Source: a virus
Reading direction: 5' to 3' (one strand)
DNA: 64,000 nucleotides
Virus record (IMG/VR): IMGVR_UViG_3300045999_007505
Below are positions 5,004 to 41,200 of the stretch, piece by piece. Below the pieces are notes generated by a model that was not told the DNA's origin, ran no database searches, and saw nothing but the letters and a program-made list of their open reading frames with translations. The number at the start of each line of letters is the position of its first letter. Within the stretch, counting starts at the first letter, position 1. The translations under genes and the position numbers were made by a program.

Positions 5004-5023
5004 ATATCAATAAATATCGTTAA

Positions 5024-6009: not shown

Positions 6010-6017
6010 ATAAATAT
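6010..6017 (-). promoter_or_regulatory. Putative late promoter ATATTTAT (representative of about 20 copies)
   Basis: Other copies on the minus strand at 5010, 6620, 9200, 15791, 16841, 20185, 21163, 24201, 27705, 29581, 33431, 35507, 38227, 45247, 47152, 53713, 56604, 58908, 61092; on the plus strand at 62192, 62216, 63231, 63255, before the plus-strand genes. Confidence 0.75.
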
Positions 6018-9178: not shown

Positions 9179-9226
9179 TTATACTCCTATGATTTTTTTA
9201 TAAATATGAATCCACGAACTCAAACC

Positions 9227-9784: not shown

Positions 9785-12133
9785 CTATGTTATTATGTTT
9801 AATATAGCATATGGCACTGTGTTAAATCCATTGCCAGTATCGTTAAATGTTATCGTGCCAGTATTGAACGTTGTATCTAAACTTCCCGATATGTTAAGTT
9901 TAGCTACATAATTAACTATTGAGCCACTGTATGTTGTAAAGTTACTTGCTATGTATGGTTTATTGTTTTTATCCAAACTAATGGCTCCTACAGATAGTGT
10001 GCCCCATCCACTTGGTCCATTGCCTACTACAAATGAATTATCTCGAGACCCGTTTGAGTTTATTTTAACTAAACGGTTAGCAGTTGATCCGGAATATGAA
10101 GTAAATATTCCTGCTACTAGTAACGAGTCATTGTTCAATAGCTTTAAAGTATAAACGGCGCCATTCTGAGTAGTGCCCGGACTAAAGGCTAAGTCTCTAG
10201 TGCCGTCAGTATTAATCTTAACAAGTCGATTAACCGAGGAGCCTGAATATGTAGTAAATGCTCCTCCAATTACGGGTTTGCCATCTGATTGAATGACTAC
10301 AGAATATACTTCGTTATTAAAGCCTGTTCCTACGTTAAACGTTGCATCGCGCGTGCCGTCGGTATTTATTCGTACTATTCTAGTTGTACTTGAACCGGAA
10401 TATGCTGTAAAATTGTTTCCAACTACAATAAACTTACCATCACTTTGCATAGCAATTGATAGTGGAGTTCCGCCAGTAAAACCGGTACCTACATTAAATG
10501 TAGTGTCGCGAGTACCATTAGTGTTTATTCGTACTATACCTGGACTGCTAGAACCACTGTATGTTGAAATATTTCCAACGGCAACTATTTTACCATCTGG
10601 TTGTATTTTAAAATCATATACGGCTCCATTAGGGCCCGCTCCTACGTTGAATGTTGTATCGAGAGTGCCGCTAACATTTAATCTTGCAAGTCTAGTAGCA
10701 TTGGATCCAGAATACGTTGTATAGTCTCCTCCAACTACAAGTTTTGCGTCGGATTGCGTAGCCATGCAATAAACCACGGTATTAAACCCAGCACCCATAT
10801 TAAATGTTGTATCAATTGAACCGGTATTATCTAATTTTATAATTCTATTATACGCGGGAGCATTGTATGTTGTGAAAGCGCCGCCTAAATATAATTTGCT
10901 TCCAGATACAAGTGTAGTCCAAACGCCGCTGTTAAATCCTCTAGTACTTTGGTTGTTAAATCCAATGCTCCCCGTGTTGAATGTTAAATCTATAGTGCCA
11001 CTTGGTGATGTTTTTACAAATCGATTAACCGTTGAACCGCTATATGTTGTAAAGTTGTTTCCAATATATACATTTCCTGCAGTATCTAAGGAAAGTCCGT
11101 TTATTGCATTGGCTGTAGTACTATTAAGTCCCGCTCCTACATTATAAGATGTATCTAGATTACCATTAGATAATATTCGAGCTAAGTTGGTTTGAACGCT
11201 GCCACTTACGGAATTGAAGAGGCCAACTATTAGTATTTTTTGATCAGGTTGCATTTTTACAGCATATACTGAGTTATTAATAGTTCCCGGATTAAAAGAA
11301 TTATCTAACGTGCCATTAGTGTTTAATCGCATTAAACGTGTCACAGTTGATCCGCTGTATTGTGTTGCACCGTGACCTATAACAATTTTACCGTCTGATT
11401 GAATATCAACCGCATATCCAACTCGCGTCGTTGCTGTAAATCCAGTACCATTGTTAAAAGTAGTATCTCTAGTACCATCGATGTTTATTCTCAATGAGCC
11501 AGTTCCAATAACTGAGCCTGAGTATGTAGTCATGCTGTTTCCAACAATAACGGCTTTATCATCACTTTGTATAGCAACAGCAAACCCGTTTTGATTTAGA
11601 CCAGTTCCTATATTGTATGTTGTATCATATGTGCCATTTGTATTAAGTCTAGCAATACGGTTTCTTGTTGATCCACTGTATGACGTAAATGCTCCAGTAA
11701 CGATCACTTTGCCATCAGATTGTAATTTTAAGTCGTATACTGTACTATTGAATCCGGTACCGACGTTAAATGTAGTGTCACGGGTACCATCGGTATTTAT
11801 TCTTATAATGTATTGGGACGAAGATCCTGAATATGCTGCAAAGCTGCCACCCATTATTATTTTACCGTCGGACTGTGTAACCATGCATAAAACGGAGTTA
11901 TTAGCTCCGGTACTACCCATGTTAAATGATGTGTCTACTGAACCAGATAAATCGGTACGTAAGATTCTAGAGTATAACGGTTGGTTGTAGGTTGTAAAGC
12001 CACCACCAACGTATAGATAATCTGGTAAGGTTGTGGTAATTGTTGTCCCCATGTAATTTACTATGTCATTAATGGAAACTCCATCAATGTATAATATTGA
12101 TCCAAAAGGAACGCCGCCTATACTTGTAACCAT
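9785..12133 (-). CDS. Delta-60-repeat beta-propeller protein (putative receptor-binding or decoration protein)
   Basis: About 14 repeats of ~53-55 aa: Q.DGK..VGG.FT.YSGS....I.R.N.DGT.DTTFN.G.G; two duplicated halves. Confidence 0.85.
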   Translation of the reverse strand: MVTSIGGVPFGSILYIDGVSINDIVNYMGTTITTTLPDYLYVGGGFTTYNQPLYSRILRTDLSGSVDTSFNMGSTGANNSVLCMVTQSDGKIIMGGSFAAYSGSSSQYIIRINTDGTRDTTFNVGTGFNSTVYDLKLQSDGKVIVTGAFTSYSGSTRNRIARLNTNGTYDTTYNIGTGLNQNGFAVAIQSDDKAVIVGNSMTTYSGSVIGTGSLRINIDGTRDTTFNNGTGFTATTRVGYAVDIQSDGKIVIGHGATQYSGSTVTRLMRLNTNGTLDNSFNPGTINNSVYAVKMQPDQKILIVGLFNSVSGSVQTNLARILSNGNLDTSYNVGAGLNSTTANAINGLSLDTAGNVYIGNNFTTYSGSTVNRFVKTSPSGTIDLTFNTGSIGFNNQSTRGFNSGVWTTLVSGSKLYLGGAFTTYNAPAYNRIIKLDNTGSIDTTFNMGAGFNTVVYCMATQSDAKLVVGGDYTTYSGSNATRLARLNVSGTLDTTFNVGAGPNGAVYDFKIQPDGKIVAVGNISTYSGSSSPGIVRINTNGTRDTTFNVGTGFTGGTPLSIAMQSDGKFIVVGNNFTAYSGSSTTRIVRINTDGTRDATFNVGTGFNNEVYSVVIQSDGKPVIGGAFTTYSGSSVNRLVKINTDGTRDLAFSPGTTQNGAVYTLKLLNNDSLLVAGIFTSYSGSTANRLVKINSNGSRDNSFVVGNGPSGWGTLSVGAISLDKNNKPYIASNFTTYSGSIVNYVAKLNISGSLDTTFNTGTITFNDTGNGFNTVPYAILNIIT

Positions 12134-12143
12134 ATCTTACCTT

Positions 12144-15100
12144 TTATAATTCAATCCATTCATTAGATGGTCTAAATTTCATAATCCAATCTACACCACC
12201 ATTATATGAGGTATAACAATAGCCTAACAATCTAACATATCCAGTTGTTGGAATTGTTGTCGACATTAATGTACCGCCACCTTCTCGAATATAAACAGGA
12301 AGTCCATAGTTAGGCCCATTAACATTTGGATATCCGCCGCCGGATGAAACAACTATATCGCCTTCAATTAAAACAGAACCAGTTTGAGAAAATATATCAA
12401 TAGCCATTCCTAACATTTTGGTTGATGTATTTGTTGTTTGATCTACTTGATACCATTGACCATCTGTATTTAAATATACTAACTCATTGCTTGATACCGT
12501 AGCATCGAAGTACGAATCTCCTAAAAGTTGTCCGGCTTTAGAATTAAACCCATATAATGAATCTCTATTAGTAGTACTTATGCGTTGTGAGCCATATAAA
12601 TCTATATTATATATTCCTGTTTGACCATCCCAAGAAATTACAGGTTGACCGGTAGCAGAATTCAATGATCTATTTCCAAAATCTATACTAGAACTACCAG
12701 CATTTAAATCATATAAATTTCTTGAAAAATTTGCATCATCTACTTCAATTGCCTTAAATGGTCCAGTAAATCCTGTTCCTTCGCCTTGTACTTTAAATGA
12801 ACCACTTAATATAGTTGGTCCTTGATTTATTAAAGTCGAAGACCCGGTTATAAGCAAAGAACCTGTTACAACTAAACTGCCAGATACTGTAGCAGATCCT
12901 GTTATTGATACCCCCGATGTCCAATTCAATATTTCAGTTCCGTTACTGTCTTTCAATTGACGGTTTTGCCAATTTATAGAATCTTTATTAGCTGTATCGA
13001 TTGCTATGCGATTCTGCCAATCTATAGAATTTTTAGCATTTGTATCTCGTAGTATGCCAGTATTCCAATTAACCGTGTATGATGCTGGGCCGTTGTCTAT
13101 TTTAAGAAGACGACTACTCCAATCAATCGATTGCGAATCAACTGTATCATATGTTGAGCGCTGATCCCAACGCATTGTAACTACTGCCGAACTATCAATT
13201 AATCTACGTACTTCCCAATTGACGCTGTTTATAGCAGAACTATCATATAAATCTCTGTCATCAGCATTAATGCTTGAAGTTCCCATTACATCATTAATAA
13301 CTCTAGTAACTCCGCCGAAATCTAATGCAGTTACATCAGATATTCCATTGTAGGTTTGTAAATTAAACGAACCAGTTACTCCTAATGAACCTGTAATACG
13401 AGTAGTGCCAATAACATCTAAGTTTGCAGTTGGATTAATTGTTCCAATTCCAATATTACCACTCTTTCCTGATATAACACCCCCGCCACTTCCTAGTTTA
13501 ATAGAAGCTACTGTAGAATCTTGTTGTCCATATACGCCTAAATGATTTGATATATTTATATCCCATAGTTCAACATCATCACCCCCTCGAAGATACATTG
13601 CACCATTTGTATTAGGAGCAATAAATCCTGTTGTTGCAGTTAATGATCCAGTTATAACTGCATTTCCTGTATATGGAAAAACTGTTCCTCCGGAGGTTGA
13701 TACTGTTATGACATTTCCTCCGGAATCTACTGCTAAGTTAGCTGCTGCTGTTCCTGGAAAAGAAGAGGCTGCTGTATATCCTGGGAGTTGCATTTGGGTG
13801 GTATGTATATCCCATTGGGCTATTAACCCCGTACTTGTGGTATTATTTCCTTTTAGTATTCTAGCTTTATTTTGCCAGTTGTCCATAAATGAAGCAGACG
13901 TATAAGTACCCCCTGGTGCATTGAATCCTATTTGTCCGCCCTCATTACTAGTGTCGCGAGCTCCTAAAGTTAAAGTATTTTCAGACGGACCTAAACTTGA
14001 AGTTCCTATAGCAGCACTACCAGTTATTATTACGGTTTGATTAAGCGTATTAACATATGAAGCAGTTGAAGCAAATGAAGCACTTACTGCTTGTAGAACG
14101 TAACTAGCAGTTGCGGCATATGAAGCACTAGTAGCAGTAGCCGCATTTCCTGTTATTGAGGCACTAATAGCAGATGTATTAACCCATTTAGCTGTAGAAG
14201 AATCATATGCCAATGGTTGTCCCGCTGATGGTCCTGAAATACTTACGTCAGATAATCCGGCCAATGTTTGAGTTACACTTCCTCCGCCACCGCCACTTCC
14301 ACCAACGGTTCTAAATAATCCTCCGGGAATTATTTTATAAGAAGCTGCCGTTGTAAAATCTGCATTATTTCTTACTACTATAGCACCCAAATAAACAGCT
14401 TGTGCTGCAGTATTAGGAGCCTCAGTAAATGGTTCAATGTTTATATTAGCAATTGCATCTAATTCTGTTGTGTATGATGCATTACCATAATATACATAAA
14501 ATGCTTTAGTGACGCTGTTTGGGAAAAAATATACTCGCTGGATTGACCATTGTCTATTACTACCACCACCAGGAACTGATGTTAAAACTCCATTAAGTGA
14601 ATATCGAGTTGGATCTATTGCACCATATCCCGCTCCTGCATTTGTATCATATACCCACGATGATCCAGATTGGTAATAACGAAATATTTTAGATACGGTG
14701 GTACCTGAGTCTGTAATGTATGAAGGATTATTAGGATCTACTGTATAATTTCTACCGTCTGACCATGCTATTCCGCTACTAACTACTAAACTACCCGTTG
14801 ATGAACCACTCACTGCTAGTGTCATTCCGGATATTTTTAATGGGCCAAATGCTCTAATAAAATCTGAAGAACGTTGTTTCCAACCGTATGCCAATGATGC
14901 AAATGTTTGAGTTCCATTAATTGTAGCATGATTTTGATGCAATACTACACCAATTGGAATTAAAGTATTGTATTGACCGTCATTATATGGTTCGCCTTGT
15001 GCATATATAGTACCATTTGATTGAATTGCTACAAATTGTTGATCATATGATGCGCTAAATGGTGCTATACTAGCAGATACATTTGGCCAATTAACATATT

Positions 15101-15707
15101 CAATTGTTGGAAATGGATTTTCATTATATGATGCATTTAAATTTACAATGATACCGCTACCACTTGATATTTGATACATTGTAGATGATTGTGATGAAAT
15201 CAATCCGCCATTTAATAATCCAGTATATAAATTACCTTCTATCCAACGCAAACGAGTTACGTTGTTATATCCTAAACCATTTTGCGAAAAATATAAATCG
15301 TTTGTTGAGCCAGAAACATAAATATAAGATGCAGATATGCTTGTATCAATGTTTTTAACAACCGGTGCAAATTTAATTACACCATTAGTTTCCATATCTC
15401 CATATACTTTAATCGTAGGCGTTACTGGAGTTGTAGTCGAACCTGATATGATAATACTACCCGACAATGTTGTGTTACCTAATAGTGTATTTGTTCCAAT
15501 CTGTGTGGTAGAGCCGGTAATATTTAATGATCCGGTTTGAGAAAATACTCCCGTTAAAAATTTACTACCTGTATGATAAACACTACCTGTATGATTGGAA
15601 TCTCCTAGCTGATTTAAACTACCCGTTATTGTAACTCCATTAGTTACATTTAATGAATTTAATGAGGCATTAGAGCCAGATGTAATGACCTTTTTCCAAG
15701 ATGGCAT
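12144..15707 (-). CDS. Large fibre-like virion protein
   Basis: 1187 aa, Ser/Gly/Thr-rich with ITGS and ASYA repeats, GNIGIGTINP, SIDWxxR repeats; C-terminal LGMA...YVRLLGYC...FRPSNEWIEL domain. Confidence 0.7.
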   Translation of the reverse strand: MPSWKKVITSGSNASLNSLNVTNGVTITGSLNQLGDSNHTGSVYHTGSKFLTGVFSQTGSLNITGSTTQIGTNTLLGNTTLSGSIIISGSTTTPVTPTIKVYGDMETNGVIKFAPVVKNIDTSISASYIYVSGSTNDLYFSQNGLGYNNVTRLRWIEGNLYTGLLNGGLISSQSSTMYQISSGSGIIVNLNASYNENPFPTIEYVNWPNVSASIAPFSASYDQQFVAIQSNGTIYAQGEPYNDGQYNTLIPIGVVLHQNHATINGTQTFASLAYGWKQRSSDFIRAFGPLKISGMTLAVSGSSTGSLVVSSGIAWSDGRNYTVDPNNPSYITDSGTTVSKIFRYYQSGSSWVYDTNAGAGYGAIDPTRYSLNGVLTSVPGGGSNRQWSIQRVYFFPNSVTKAFYVYYGNASYTTELDAIANINIEPFTEAPNTAAQAVYLGAIVVRNNADFTTAASYKIIPGGLFRTVGGSGGGGGSVTQTLAGLSDVSISGPSAGQPLAYDSSTAKWVNTSAISASITGNAATATSASYAATASYVLQAVSASFASTASYVNTLNQTVIITGSAAIGTSSLGPSENTLTLGARDTSNEGGQIGFNAPGGTYTSASFMDNWQNKARILKGNNTTSTGLIAQWDIHTTQMQLPGYTAASSFPGTAAANLAVDSGGNVITVSTSGGTVFPYTGNAVITGSLTATTGFIAPNTNGAMYLRGGDDVELWDINISNHLGVYGQQDSTVASIKLGSGGGVISGKSGNIGIGTINPTANLDVIGTTRITGSLGVTGSFNLQTYNGISDVTALDFGGVTRVINDVMGTSSINADDRDLYDSSAINSVNWEVRRLIDSSAVVTMRWDQRSTYDTVDSQSIDWSSRLLKIDNGPASYTVNWNTGILRDTNAKNSIDWQNRIAIDTANKDSINWQNRQLKDSNGTEILNWTSGVSITGSATVSGSLVVTGSLLITGSSTLINQGPTILSGSFKVQGEGTGFTGPFKAIEVDDANFSRNLYDLNAGSSSIDFGNRSLNSATGQPVISWDGQTGIYNIDLYGSQRISTTNRDSLYGFNSKAGQLLGDSYFDATVSSNELVYLNTDGQWYQVDQTTNTSTKMLGMAIDIFSQTGSVLIEGDIVVSSGGGYPNVNGPNYGLPVYIREGGGTLMSTTIPTTGYVRLLGYCYTSYNGGVDWIMKFRPSNEWIEL

Positions 15708-15722
15708 ACTATTTTCCTTTTG

Positions 15723-15784
15723 TGTTGTGGTTGGTTACATACACTTATGCCGTGCGTGTGCCCACTTCCTTGCGGCCTACAACA
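15723..15784 (-). ncRNA. Putative structured cis-regulatory RNA in the 5' leader of the fibre gene
   Basis: GC-rich island UGUUGUAGGCCGCAAGGAAGUGGGCACACGCACGGCAUAAGUGUAUGUAACCAACCACAACA with a closing stem, a CC-GCAA-GG GNRA hairpin and a second stem; lies between the ATATTTAT motif and the RBS. Confidence 0.55.
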
Positions 15785-15797
15785 TTTATAATAAATA

Positions 15798-15974
15798 TCA
15801 CTGTTTTAGATATTGGTCTTGTAATTTTAGAATGATATTGTAGAATGTCTCTACTTGGTCTCCGCGTACGGAAACATCTTTAAGGATCATCAATAAAAAT
15901 TCAATTTCTTGTTTTGTTAATTGTGATGCAGATTCTGGATTTGGTTGTGCTTTTAAACGATCAATTATGCTCAT
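15798..15974 (-). CDS. 58-aa hypothetical protein (not in the ORF track)
   Basis: MSIIDRLKAQPNPESASQLTKQEIEFLLMILKDVSVRGDQVETFYNIILKLQDQYLKQ; fills the intergenic gap. Confidence 0.7.
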   Translation of the reverse strand: MSIIDRLKAQPNPESASQLTKQEIEFLLMILKDVSVRGDQVETFYNIILKLQDQYLKQ

Positions 15975-15989
15975 AACTTGTTTTTATTT

Positions 15990-16820
15990 TTATGCGTAAA
16001 TATATATATCTCCGGTATTTGTATCAACGTGAATTGTTCCGGAGCCATTACCCGATCCACCATATATTGGTGCTGCAGCTGGCGCTATGGCACTTGTTTC
16101 TACCGTTCCTACAAACACTGCAGGTGTAAATGAATTTCCGGTTGCAACGAATGAAGAAGTAAATCCCCAACGGGTTGTTCCGGAATCATATCCATATAAT
16201 TCACCGATATTTTGAGTGCCTTGTTGAACTACAATACCACCATCGCCAGTAGTATTAGACCCAGATGCAAACAATACAAATCGATCTGCAACAAGCAAGT
16301 TTTGTGTATTTTGAAATGATGCAGTACCTAATACAACTAAATTGCCTGTTAATGTTAATCCAACAAATTGAGGAGAGTCTGTAGTTTGTAGTCCTAAATC
16401 AATAGTTGAACCAGCTACACCATTCGTTGTTAAAAGAGCTTCACCTTGATTTGGTGATGATAATACTGAAGAAGATATTACCGTGCTACCCGCTAATATT
16501 TGTGCTTGCGTAACTGTTCCGCCTAATGATGTTGCATTACCGGCAATTGTTATGGAAGAATTAGTTAAACTTGCATTTGGAATTCCACCTAATGTAAATG
16601 TAATTGTATCAGAACCAGCGTTGCCTGCAATATTTAATCCTGCGCCAGACGAAGATGCAAATGTTAATGTATCTACTGCACTGTCTGCTACTATATTCGT
16701 GCCATTGATAGACATCGTAGCAAATGTATTTTGTGCTGTTATCGATGTTAAATAATTAGCATCATTATTTAATTGTGAAATATTACTACCTGATACTACT
16801 ACTTTTTTCCAAGTTGCCAT
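15990..16820 (-). CDS. Fibre-like virion structural protein
   Basis: N-terminus MATWKKVVVSGSN parallels MPSWKKVITSGSN of 12144-15707; DSPQFVGLTLTGNLVVLGT and LLVADRFVLFASGS fibre-type segments. Confidence 0.7.
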   Translation of the reverse strand: MATWKKVVVSGSNISQLNNDANYLTSITAQNTFATMSINGTNIVADSAVDTLTFASSSGAGLNIAGNAGSDTITFTLGGIPNASLTNSSITIAGNATSLGGTVTQAQILAGSTVISSSVLSSPNQGEALLTTNGVAGSTIDLGLQTTDSPQFVGLTLTGNLVVLGTASFQNTQNLLVADRFVLFASGSNTTGDGGIVVQQGTQNIGELYGYDSGTTRWGFTSSFVATGNSFTPAVFVGTVETSAIAPAAAPIYGGSGNGSGTIHVDTNTGDIYIYA

Positions 16821-16853
16821 GTTTTATGTTCCTATTTTATATAAATATATGCA

Positions 16854-20168: not shown

Positions 20169-20191
20169 TATGCTCCTTTTTTATATAAATA

Positions 20192-20857
20192 TCAATACGT
20201 TTCATTTAGAAGTTTTAAAATTTCATTTAATGATTCATGACGATGATTATCCAATAAAATAATTTCATTAACATATTGTGATTTCGTTAATTTAGGTACT
20301 TCATGCACTGCCGAATCATTTGCAAACTTTAAATCTATTTGATATCTATCACCTGTGAGTATCATAATACTATCTTTACCTAATCTAGAAACAACCATTT
20401 GTAGTTGTTGTTTAGTTAAGTTTTGAAATTCGTCTACAATACAAACTGCATGATCGAATGTACGTCCTCGGAAGTGTGCTAATGAAACTAATTCAATATT
20501 TTCTTCCTTTTCCATTTTGTCTAATATTTCCGGTTTATTATAAACCTTACGCATATTGCTACGTAATGGAACTAACCATGGATCCATTTTTTCTGCTAAA
20601 GACCCAGGAAGAAATCCATTATCTTCGTTTGACACTGTAGGACGTGTTATGATAATTTTATTAATTTGTCGTTTAAAAAACATATCCAATGCAACTTGAA
20701 CTGCTAACAATGTTTTACCAGATCCGGCTTTGCCTAATATAAAATTAAATGGGGTTTCTATAATTTTTGCTTTTGCTTGTTTTTGCTCTTCTGATAATGT
20801 TATTGAAAATTTAATATCAGTTTTAGGTGGAGTTTTTTCCCGATTTTGAGTAGCCAT
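20192..20857 (-). CDS. phoH: PhoH-family ATPase
   Basis: GKAGSGKT, ITRP, GFLPG, RGRTF, DEFQN, SRLG, GDRYQID, NHRH. Confidence 0.95.
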   Translation of the reverse strand: MATQNREKTPPKTDIKFSITLSEEQKQAKAKIIETPFNFILGKAGSGKTLLAVQVALDMFFKRQINKIIITRPTVSNEDNGFLPGSLAEKMDPWLVPLRSNMRKVYNKPEILDKMEKEENIELVSLAHFRGRTFDHAVCIVDEFQNLTKQQLQMVVSRLGKDSIMILTGDRYQIDLKFANDSAVHEVPKLTKSQYVNEIILLDNHRHESLNEILKLLNETY

Positions 20858-38207: not shown

Positions 38208-38233
38208 CGTATGAAATATCTTTTATATAAATA

Positions 38234-41200
38234 TTACACATGATTAATCTTGCTGAATCCGTTTGTTTTGTTAACTTCAATTAAATTATCAACCATATCT
38301 CGCATAGAATCAACGTGCGAAATAATAATTGAAAAATCAAATTTAGTTCTAAAATAATCAAATAAGTTTACTACCGAAGAAATATGTTCTGCATCTAACG
38401 AACCCCATCCTTCATCGATTGCAATAAAATTAGGACGAGGTAATGCTGAAACATTGATAAGTGCAATGCGTATTGCTAAAGATGAAATAAATCGTTCCAT
38501 GCCGGATGTCAATTCTAATGGCCAATAATTATCTTCATCATAAATAATATATCCGTTAATATTTTTGCCATCGGTATTCAATACCATGTTAAATTCAACA
38601 ATTTGATTTAAAACGTTATTAATTTCAGATTCAATTTTAGGAATAGCTTTTGCAACTAATTCATATGGAATTCCATTTCTTTTAACTGACTCTAAATAAT
38701 ATTCATATGCTTTGTATTCCGTTTCGAGTTGTCGATAACGTTCCAATTGATCAATTGCAGTTCCTTTATTTGTACGTGCAACTTCAATAGCACCGAATAA
38801 TGATTTAATTTGATCTTGAATTATTTTGATTTGTTGCGAACATGATACGATTTGTGTTTTACATTCTTCAATTGATTGATCTATTCGTTGATTATGCGTG
38901 ATTGCTGTTTCATTTTTACGAAATGATTCTTGTCGTTCAATAACTGTTTCTAATTCAGATTCTCGAGTTTGCAAATCGCTTTCTAAAATTTGTAATTGTA
39001 ATTCATTGCGTTCTAATGTAATTTTTTTAGTAGCAATATTAGATTTTAATTTATTATATTGATCTGCAATTTCAAATATAGGTTTTAATGCATCTAATTG
39101 AGAATTTAATTCTGTTAGTTCTTGCTGTATTTCTTCTAATAACGCTCTATCCGAATCAATTGTATTCTGGGCTTCAATTGCGTTTTGCACGAAAACGTTA
39201 GATGTACAGTATTTGCAGTTTGGATCATATTCATGAGATTCGAGATGTTTAATTTTTTCTTGTTTGACATTTACTTTCTCCTGTTGTTGTCTAAATTTTT
39301 GTAAGCACGTGTTAGTTAATTGTTCTAATTTTTGATACTGAGTTGTTTGCGTTTCAATTGCGGCTGTATCTATTTGTGATAATTCCGATTCTAATGTCTC
39401 AACGGTTTCAGATAATGTTTCTAATGCTTGTTCTGCCGTTTCTATATCTGTTTGAATTGTTTCAATTTTACCAATCAATGTTTGTTCTTGTGATTGCAAT
39501 TCCGCAATATTCGGCCCATCGTATGTTGTTGGTAATTTTGTTTCAATTAGTTGTAATATTTGTTCTTGAAATTCATTTCGAAGATCTTGTTGTTGATCTT
39601 CAAGTTGTTCTAATGATATAATAGTATCTTGATTTTCCGTAATAACGGCATCTGCTTGAATAATAATTTCAGCAAAATCCGTTTTCTTATAATCCTTTAA
39701 TCGCCCCGCAGTTTCTTTAATTTCATCTGCGGCAAGTTGATACAGTTGTTCAAATACTGTAATATCTAGGAATTGTGATAAAAGATCTTTGCGTTCTTTT
39801 TGTGACTTTTCAATAAAGTTATTGTTGTCTGCTTGTAAAGAAAATGCAGTTAAAATAAAATCATCATATGTGCCTAAATAGCGTCGAATGTTTTTATTTG
39901 TTTCACTACGTTCCTCACCATTTAAATTTTCTGAATCTGTATAAAATTCTACATCAACTTTAACGTGCGTTTCTTTCTTTTTATTTTGAGTACCTCTACG
40001 TTCAATAGTATATGTTACTCCATTCATTTCGAAACGAAATACACCTCGGAACCAATCTTTCTTGTTATTTAATACTTCATTTGCTTTGCTTGTTTTGCTA
40101 CATTTATCAAATATAGTATATGTAATTGCATCAAGCAAGCTTGATTTTCCAGATGTGTTTGCAGCAAATAATCCGCATACATCAGACAAGTTTTCAAAAT
40201 TTAAAACATTGCCTTCACCATATGAAAACATGTTATCAAATTCAAATGATATAGGATGCCAAGTAGTATGACGTATTGATTCCACTGCTGGCAATTTTGA
40301 ATTTATTGTGCGATTAATATGTCGAATAGCATCAATTTCATTCAGAGTAGCCTGTGGGAAATTCGTATCAATATATTCTGTTAATAATACATTTTGATAT
40401 TCAACATCCCGAACATTTCCTATTGCTAAACTAGAAGAAGTATTAGTCGCATTCGAACCTATAGTTCTTTGAATTGTAATGTCTTCTACTTGATATTTTT
40501 TTCGAATCATTGCAATCAAACGTTTCATATCTGCTGCACTCGTTTCGTTAAATTTAATACGAATGCGAGGACGTTTTGGCATACGATGCGGAGAAGATAT
40601 GATTGCAGAACCCTGAGTTTCTATAGTTACATAACCATAATCATTTTCAATTTGTACAAATTCTGCACTTCGTTGTTCTACATCCCAAACTAATATACCA
40701 TGGTCCAATGCTTCGCCATGATTTTGTTGAATAAGTGAACCAGGATATGCGACGGTTTGTGCTGCATCTAGGAATTGTGCTGGTTTGTGAATATCTCCTA
40801 GCAACGTAATGTCATGTCCTTCAAATAAATCAACACCTACATGTTCATTTGATATTTGATATCCAATATCCGTTTTGGCAGTATTTACTGCACCATGGTG
40901 TAATGCAATTTTATATGTAGCTGTAAAATCTTTTGCACGAATATAATCAGCGGGTGTTTTATCAACAGCCATATGATTCCAAGTAACGCCTCCCAATTCA
41001 AATAAACCATTATCTTTAACAAAATGAATATGTTTATTTTGAATTACATCCAGTACTGGACTTACTGCATCGATGCGATGCATATTGTTTAAGTTCATGT
41101 CATGGTTACCTAAAATAACAATTGTAGGTAATTCAAATCCATTAAAGAAATCAACTAGCATTTGAACTAGTTCTGGCGACATATCTAATTTGCTATGCAC

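Follow-up and report, generated by a model that had tools for sequence, protein, structure and literature searches.

What is a compact, GC-rich island doing in the short gap before a phage tail-fibre gene? In the 64,000-nt stretch of DNA analysed here (IMG/VR virus record IMGVR_UViG_3300045999_007505; hereafter the window), the gene for a 1187-aa tail-fibre-like protein beginning MPSWKKVITSGS (12144..15707, from the list of open reading frames, or ORFs) is preceded by 90 nt of intergenic DNA (15708-15797), which run from the stop codon of a 58-aa ORF (15798-15800) to the fibre ATG (15707). Within this AT-rich gap lies a 62-nt island (15723-15784) with a GC content of 0.51 against ~0.35 locally, and all window coordinates given for this element and for the fibre locus are on the minus strand. 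The original prediction, made from the sequence alone, had read the island as a structured RNA of no recognised kind, lying in the leader of the large fibre gene and either tuning the output of the fibre or serving as a small RNA. We find it near certain, from comparison with homologous leaders, that the element is a conserved structured RNA, and we hold, with moderate confidence, that it acts in cis as a leader RNA of the tail-fibre gene and gates its translation.

Conservation and covariation across phage genomes

We searched IMG/VR with two proteins as guides, the fibre and the product of the 276-aa gene upstream of it, and obtained 101 loci; in 56 of these blastn found the leader, at 92-98% identity against 75-91% for the neighbouring protein. 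A covariance model (R1) was then made from the core and IMG/VR was scanned for two invariant strings; the full-length model matched 91 of the 99 new loci from this pattern scan at E<=1 (87 at E<=0.001) and 69 of 100 first loci. By strict pattern there are at least 138 distinct phage copies, and the family is larger than what was sampled. The window contains one copy of the element by covariance-model search, and one copy each is present in four whole or near-whole genomes of ~160 kb, namely three IMG/VR records (two with terminal repeats and one linear, 95% complete) and the cultured Flavobacterium phage vB_FspM_immuto (hereafter immuto), where it precedes gp052, a 'putative tail fiber-like protein'.

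Covariation and conservation in homologous leaders, the test that the original prediction had named for itself, are both present. Among 33 unique homologous leaders, the structure pairs 95% of the cells, with both-sided changes at 12 pairs, a result that none of 500 shuffles matched, and RNAalifold independently derives the same three-way junction. Among 96 distinct model-aligned copies, 94.6% of the cells are paired, with compensatory changes at 15 of 21 pairs and in 168 cells, compared to just 29-53% paired in slid controls on the same alignment. Pair 22-52 of the RNA, for example, is GC in 66 and AU in 30 of these copies, with zero single-sided changes. G-U pairs are also frequent (U6-G57 in 35 copies and U-G at pair 27-47 in 22), and since they would be A-C mismatches on the other strand, the coding strand must be the functional one. 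The core is 98.5% identical among 12 close relatives, against 82-86% for the flanking genes; judged by these identities, selection on the RNA core is stronger than on the neighbouring proteins. It is this comparison across homologues, rather than the folding energy of any single sequence, that makes the element a real RNA.

The element also appears to be new to the catalogues. Rfam 15, with 4227 models including hammerhead, twister, pistol, hatchet, preQ1, glutamine and c-di-GMP I/II, gave no match to 15700-15800 at E<=10 and, for 15400-16100 at the same threshold, one chance snoR4a match that lies elsewhere; 14 loci with divergent copies gave none at E<=1. The claim that the RNA is neither hammerhead, twister, pistol nor a known riboswitch is thus borne out against these models, and the island does deserve the name of an unrecognised structured RNA, now with conservation and covariation behind it. 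Our literature searches found no paper describing this motif, and a search for the literal sequence string gave unrelated matches. The island is one copy of an uncatalogued and widespread three-armed RNA fold that stands before one class of tail-fibre gene in aquatic (Flavobacterium-type) phages, a family abundant in lake and marine viromes and absent from Rfam. The sequencing runs that carry the element are lake, freshwater and river DNA metagenomes, with no RNA run among those listed. Scanning 596 Gb of cellular genomes for the same DNA pattern gave at least 120 matches, which we regard as chance because the model rejected all 100 that were tested; no prophage copy was among them. A 1-kb stretch surrounding the element had no blastn match among 50,697 isolate phage records, and tblastn with the N-terminus of the fibre matched the immuto phages only.

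Anatomy of the three-way junction

The hand fold of the original prediction and the RNAfold minimum-energy structure of the 62-mer (-17.5 kcal/mol) are exactly the same three-way junction, in which a closing stem (UGUUGU-A-GG / CC-ACAACA) encloses a CC-GCAA-GG hairpin and, beyond a UGG/CCA helix, a distal ACAC.GCAC/GUGU.UGU stem. The outer part of the closing stem, P1, is formed by UGUUGU (nt 1-6 of the RNA; 15779..15784) and ACAACA (nt 57-62; 15723..15728), and both-sided changes occur family-wide at all six of its pairs, pair 5-58 being GC in 32 and AU in 63 copies. A bulged A7 (15778) separates this part from G8-G9 (15776..15777), which pair with C56-C55 (15729..15730) at the inner end of P1 and are invariant in most copies; G9-C55 is replaced by A-U in phage immuto and in two other loci (L059 and L077). 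The P2 hairpin (nt 10-17; 15768..15775) is founded on the nearly invariant pairs C10-G17 and C11-G16, and across the family its arm varies in length from 2 to ~10 bp and its loop is free to vary, with UUCG, UGAAUAA and long P2 arms all occurring. Because P2 takes any loop, the GNRA hairpin loop noted in the original prediction is a trait of the window that is not conserved in the family. The linker J2/3 (A18 A19 G20; 15765..15767) consists of invariant columns in alignments A1 and A2, and so does the single A54 of J3/1 (15731). Between the two linkers lies the P3 arm (nt 21-53; 15732..15764), which starts with U21-A53, G22-C52 and G23-C51 and continues through a bulge region into a variable distal stem.

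It is in P3 that the family alters the picture drawn from one sequence. The arm spans anything from a 3-bp hairpin to ~11 bp, and among 77 unique P3 arms the register is C25-G47, 26-46, 27-45 and onward, these positions being paired in 100, 92, 81, 89 and 91% of cells, with all four Watson-Crick types at pair 26-46. Family-wide, G24 faces a conserved U48-A49-(A/U)50 bulge (U48-A49-A50 at 15735-15737 in the window), so that what had been called an AA linker is actually part of this bulge, beyond which C25-G47 closes the distal P3 stem of the family. The minimum-energy register of the window (A26-U48 onward) is restricted to a long-P3 subclass, where the repetitive stem permits slippage by one step, and the P3 register in the window is ambiguous to that extent. 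The terminal loop of the arm, ACGGCAUAA (15745..15753), is nearly invariant within the long-P3 class. Overall, the invariant or near-invariant positions are G8 G9 C10 C11, G16 G17, A18 A19 G20, U21, G23, G24 and C25 on the 5' side and G47 U48 A49, C51, A53 A54 and C55 C56 on the 3' side.

Position relative to the promoter-like box and the start codon

The ATATTTAT box (15791..15798) and the AAGGA (15715-15719) are both located where the original prediction had put them. The box, which is promoter-like, overlaps the TGA stop of the upstream small ORF and lies 6 nt before the first base of P1, and the AAGGA, read from the sequence as a Shine-Dalgarno-like site, is carried by an A-rich linker of 15 nt (15708..15722) between P1 and the fibre gene. 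There are 35 copies of ATATTTAT in the window, 30 on the gene strand and 5 on the other, while dinucleotide-shuffled sequences average 21.5 and reach at most 30; the copies span 582-63262, and most of them sit in short gaps 7-30 nt before start codons. On this distribution it looks like the phage's own promoter box. Examples are found at 5010-5017, 6010-6017, 9200-9207, 16841-16848, 20185-20192 and 38227-38234, and four plus-strand copies precede plus-strand genes at 62-63 kb. Of the 138 family members, 102 carry a TAYNTAT box that stops 10-18 nt short of G8 and about 6 nt short of P1, and in the remaining 36, mostly from a marine group, there is no box and the stop codon of the upstream ORF abuts P1.

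On the other side, the distance from the end of P1 to the start codon is 6-25 nt (median 12.5, 122 copies; 15 in the window), and in copies of the marine group an AAGGAG site overlaps the P1 3' strand (AUAAGG). The downstream gene begins MPxW(K/N/R)K in 129 of the 138 copies, the nine exceptions being two contig ends, two GTG starts (one of them after an insert), two inserts of ~105 nt and three homing-endonuclease ORFs. Codon 2 is CCN (Pro) in all 129 of the motif-linked genes, as opposed to the 124 MxxWKK paralogues without the motif, where it is Ala in 113 and Pro in 11. The element always adjoins the region where fibre translation starts, on the coding strand, and for that reason the alternative that it serves as a small RNA is unlikely.

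Complementarity between terminal loops and the start region

Within the P3 loop of the window, GGCAUA (15746-15751) is the complement of UAUGCC (15703..15708), which takes in position -1, the start codon and two further bases, the first two of the proline codon, and is the proposed partner of the loop. The helix would have 6 bp and -8.9 kcal/mol, a value matched by 1% of loop shuffles. In the long-P3 copies (C/U)GGCAUA faces UAUGCC(G/A), the three copies with U all facing CCA, for a helix of 7 bp, and the nine with C facing CCG; in one copy (L041) a shifted loop UGGCA faces UGCCA. The complementarity is not confined to this arm. In the marine group, which has a short P3 and a long P2, it is the P2 loop (UUGGCA, UUUGGCA, GUGGCA or UUGGCG) that faces UGCCAA(A). 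One copy (L097) has AGGCAU in its P2 loop, and in two others (L103 and L122) a P3 loop ACUCACU faces AGUGAGU immediately 5' of the AUG. Across these architectures the duplexes range from -7.4 to -11.6 kcal/mol, with loop-shuffle p values of 0.000-0.022, and terminal-loop helices of >=6 bp with the -12..+9 region are found in 38% of 131 copies versus 1.5% of random windows from the same loci. The spacer length increases with the length of P3 (rho 0.69). A copy with a GUG start (L213) has a weak loop-to-start match (-6.3 kcal/mol, p 0.10).

A side observation concerns the same loop: in the minimum-energy register of the window the P3 loop is 7 nt long (GGCAUAA, 15745-15751), with CAU at loop positions 3-5 followed by AA. 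This layout resembles that of the initiator-tRNA anticodon loop, CUCAUAA, a likeness that may merely follow from pairing with AUG.

A small two-helix protein encoded upstream

The 58-aa ORF directly upstream of the RNA (15798..15974) belongs to a family of small two-helix proteins, and a homologue of 47-85 aa is encoded in the same place in ~126 of 130 copies. The two BLAST clusters into which these small ORFs fall are joined by hhalign (probability 93%, E 3e-7), and the protein carries the motif L-T-x-x-E-I-x-F-L ... G-x-D-A ... L-Q-x-K-L-E. AlphaFold models the protein as a helical hairpin, helix-turn-helix-like, with a core pLDDT of ~90. It falls in no Pfam or PHROG family, its sole matches in the Atlas are unnamed viral clusters, and Foldseek against the PDB returned nothing at E <=0.001, which is uninformative for a helical hairpin. 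The protein may be an effector of the RNA or an assembly factor of the fibre.

A proposed translation gate and the alternatives to it

How could the element act? According to the reading that we favour, transcription would probably start a few bases past the ATATTTAT box, such that the fibre mRNA would open directly with the three-way junction; the base of P1 ends 15 nt short of the AUG, bordering the site where the ribosome lands. The RNA can be envisioned as having two layers. The near-invariant scaffold (G8G9/C55C56, C10C11/G16G17, AAG, U21-R22-G23/C51-Y52-A53, G24, the U48-A49-W50 bulge and A54) would be the recognition surface for a trans-acting factor, and a freely evolving arm would present a terminal loop that pairs with the initiation region as an anti-start sequence, the pseudoknot GGCAUA:UAUGCC hiding the start codon in the window. 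With fold and pseudoknot stable the 30S subunit could not engage; once they are opened or remodelled, the fibre would be made. Something would have to recognise the scaffold, since plain occlusion would not need an invariant junction, and the likeliest effector would be a phage protein of the same module, either the two-helix protein or the conserved N-terminal part of the fibre, because of the strict association with one gene in one copy and the ever-present small ORF. Such control would set the dosage or the timing of a low-copy virion protein. Some support for gating comes from homing-endonuclease ORFs, which are typically held at low expression and which have settled directly behind the leader in three lineages. 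The original idea that the leader tunes fibre output thus fits the AUG spacing, the link to MPxWKK and the start-complementary loops, and the function itself is what we infer from them.

Several points weigh against gating by this route. On its own the window sequence folds no better than chance (z -0.85, equalled by 32 of 200 shuffles), and the opposite strand folds nearly as stably (z -0.49). The copies are related and not phylogenetically independent, so that the counts overstate the number of independent events; by our count there are roughly five independent loop architectures. In about 40% of the copies, where P2 and P3 are both short, no terminal loop makes a helix of >=5 bp with the start region, and the pseudoknot is therefore not a universal mechanism. 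Nor can its start-side partner covary, since AUGCC is also fixed by the protein (Met-Pro), and the split between Pro and Ala at codon 2 may just mark two old paralogues. Simple occlusion leaves the ~24 invariant junction nucleotides unexplained. The effector is a guess, and the small ORF may equally be a fibre assembly factor.

We also entertain, tentatively, the view that the invariant junction is a specific receptor, belonging to a new riboswitch class that senses a signal of the infected cell or else binding the two-helix protein, and that aquatic Bacteroidota phages use this dedicated switch to time or dose their host-recognition fibre. If this were true, no earlier class of regulatory RNA is known that serves a phage receptor-binding protein exclusively, and the hosts concerned have ribosomes that for the most part disregard Shine-Dalgarno signals. 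Taken strictly as a metabolite- or signal-sensing riboswitch, in which the junction and the bulge form a pocket and a ligand stabilises or releases P1 and the pseudoknot, switching fibre translation with the state of the infected cell, the idea seems unlikely to us. Known riboswitch classes control varied genes, whereas here there is just one family of structural genes, without a link to metabolism, and just one type of expression platform; even at E 10 none of the riboswitch models in Rfam gave a match, and the ligand idea that was tested, of the 7-deazaguanine/preQ type, failed. It does look like an aptamer, with the ~24 invariant nucleotides gathered at the junction and at an internal bulge, P2 and P3 being free in length and sequence, and with a size (52-72 nt) and stem order like those of the 61-nt glutamine aptamer (PMC5393176). 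The overlap of the P1 3' strand with AAGGAG in the marine group would also make a classic translational expression platform.

The remaining alternatives place the function outside initiation. That the RNA is a processing or stability element is improbable, whether as a protective 5' structure, as an RNase site or as a novel ribozyme that cuts itself and so releases the fibre cistron from the message upstream. Its place would suit such a role, 74% of copies lying at the predicted start of a transcript and the others immediately following a stop codon, and a compact three-way junction around a conserved core is a typical shape for small ribozymes, of which phages carry many, but there is no match to the hammerhead, twister, twister-sister, pistol, hatchet or HDV models and no CUGANGA/GAAA hammerhead core in the sequence, the tight AUG spacing and the start-complementary loops would go unexplained, and a mere stabiliser would not need an invariant junction. 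We give still less credence to a put-like antitermination RNA that binds RNA polymerase just past the promoter and carries it processively through a long fibre operon. The element begins ~6 nt past the promoter-like box in most copies and is a multi-stem RNA of ~65 nt before a 3.5-kb gene and further structural genes, much like putL/putR of HK022; yet 36 of 138 copies directly follow a stop codon with no box, it is to the AUG (6-25 nt) and not the promoter that the element is anchored, anti-start loops make no sense in such a role, and the one region scanned held no terminator-like sites. Least credible of all is a module boundary acting as DNA, a recombination or homing site for swaps of fibre bodies in which the RNA fold is incidental, even though the element sits where a conserved leader and ~25 codons meet mosaic fibre bodies and although HNH and GIY-YIG-type endonuclease ORFs have been inserted right behind it in three lineages. 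Compensatory changes that preserve helices as the sequence drifts, common strand-specific G-U pairs, and arms that change in length yet remain hairpins are not expected of a DNA site.

Comparison with known RNAs

The closest likeness of a translation gate is to the translational operators, such as the leader pseudoknots of Escherichia coli rpsO (S15) and T4 gene 32 and the operator hairpin of MS2 coat protein and replicase, in which a protein of the same module stabilises the leader structure and gives dosage control. In common with these, the proposed gate would be a structure in the leader of one mRNA, acting in cis, that involves or abuts the start codon and limits access of the 30S subunit, and its context, with one associated gene, a single copy in each genome and a small conserved ORF immediately before the element, is consistent with an autogenous operator. 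There is no relation in sequence or fold, however: here a three-way-junction scaffold has ~24 invariant nucleotides, and the anti-start loop is on either of two arms and absent in ~40% of copies. The HK022 put RNAs are likewise compact multi-stem phage RNAs that act in cis directly past a promoter, and differ in that our element is AUG-anchored and 26% of its copies have no promoter box.

Two riboswitches share the outline of the element. With the glutamine-I riboswitch (glnA RNA, RF01739; 5DDO/5DDP), whose reference sequence and loop E assignment we took from PMC5393176, it has in common the shape of a ~61-nt junction of three stems in the order P1-P2-P3, a GGAAGUA(A/G)GG string after the P2 hairpin, and occurrence in aquatic microbes and phages; the riboswitch forms a pseudoknot in its active state, to which the proposed loop-to-start pairing would correspond. 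The gene context differs, a fibre gene standing in the place of nitrogen genes or short peptides. We rejected this identity: the loop E (GAAGUAA/UGAAGC) is absent, the opposing strand is C-Y-A-A-C-C with R22-Y52 covarying as a Watson-Crick pair, and the model does not match at E 10. With the c-di-GMP-II riboswitch (RF01786; 3Q3Z) the element shares a core made of a three-helix junction, and its GGGCA...AACC(A/G)ACC-like string is one that we take to resemble part of that aptamer. In c-di-GMP-II the junction consists of P1, P2 and an internal pseudoknot stem, P4, with P3 as the bridge, and adenines and a guanine of P4 hold the ligand (PMC13715770). That candidate was discarded as well, as the consensus here has three ordinary hairpin or closing stems and no internal pseudoknot, the model does not match, and the candidate pseudoknot reaches out of the core to the start codon. 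A kink-turn does not fit either, the 3-nt bulge U48-A49-W50 being flanked by standard C25-G47 and G23-C51 pairs with no tandem G-A, and a hammerhead is rejected by the junction strands (none, AAG and A), the missing CUGANGA/GAAA core and the lack of a model match.

A sensor of preQ or 7-deazaguanine was considered because the DNA of immuto is fully modified, all its G being replaced by a preQ1 derivative (10.1101/2023.04.13.536721). QueC (PF06508) is encoded by immuto (NC_055915.1, 18622-19287) and by one further motif-bearing contig (G009:C1:17122-17844). The candidate was rejected on the absence of QueC from four motif-bearing genomes (three 100% and one 95% complete), which include the closest complete relatives of the window.

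Structured regulatory RNAs are, to our knowledge, rare in the structural modules of phages, and we know of none dedicated to the tail fibre, the protein that sets host range. Bacteroidota largely initiate without Shine-Dalgarno pairing, and if the translation gate is real it would show how their phages control initiation in hosts that lack the classical pairing; binding of a ligand or of the small protein would mean a new aptamer or a new RNA-protein pair. Since a cultured representative exists, Flavobacterium phage immuto on Flavobacterium sp. LMO8, the matter is directly testable.

The fibre module around the element

The first 29 residues of the window fibre match gp052 of immuto, and conservation across the family is limited to ~25 N-terminal residues, with synonymous sites past codon 6 varying freely. 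Beyond ~75 nt the fibre body is unrelated in 10 of 12 close relatives (window 12144-15632 versus loci L023-L042), and on these alignments fibre bodies are swapped behind a leader and N-terminus that stay fixed. The element also marks a fixed boundary next to fibre-body exchange and to the landing sites of homing endonucleases. The endonuclease-type ORFs directly behind the motif are an HNH_3 ORF at L007:2484-3005 (+), an HNH ORF at L107:1553-1795 (-) and a NUMOD1 ORF with a weak GIY-YIG match at L176:10525-11247 (-), and two of the three open with the fibre's own ATGCCAAAT, as if leader and first codons had been captured.

The inserts of ~105 nt between motif and fibre start (L200:11543-11652 and L118:3956-4063) appear to hold a partial second copy of the 3' half of the motif (UCUAUCCAACCC ... 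CCAACGAUA), which could pair with the 5' strand of P1 instead; as a terminator-type expression platform they were rejected, no terminator being found there. In the window, the 276-aa gene two genes upstream of the fibre (15990-16820, minus strand), which starts MATWKKVV, an N-terminus paralogous to that of the fibre, has the ATATTTAT box and no leader RNA. Just past the fibre, a 782-aa protein (9785-12133, minus strand) consists of 12 DUF5122 beta-propeller repeats (E 3e-131).

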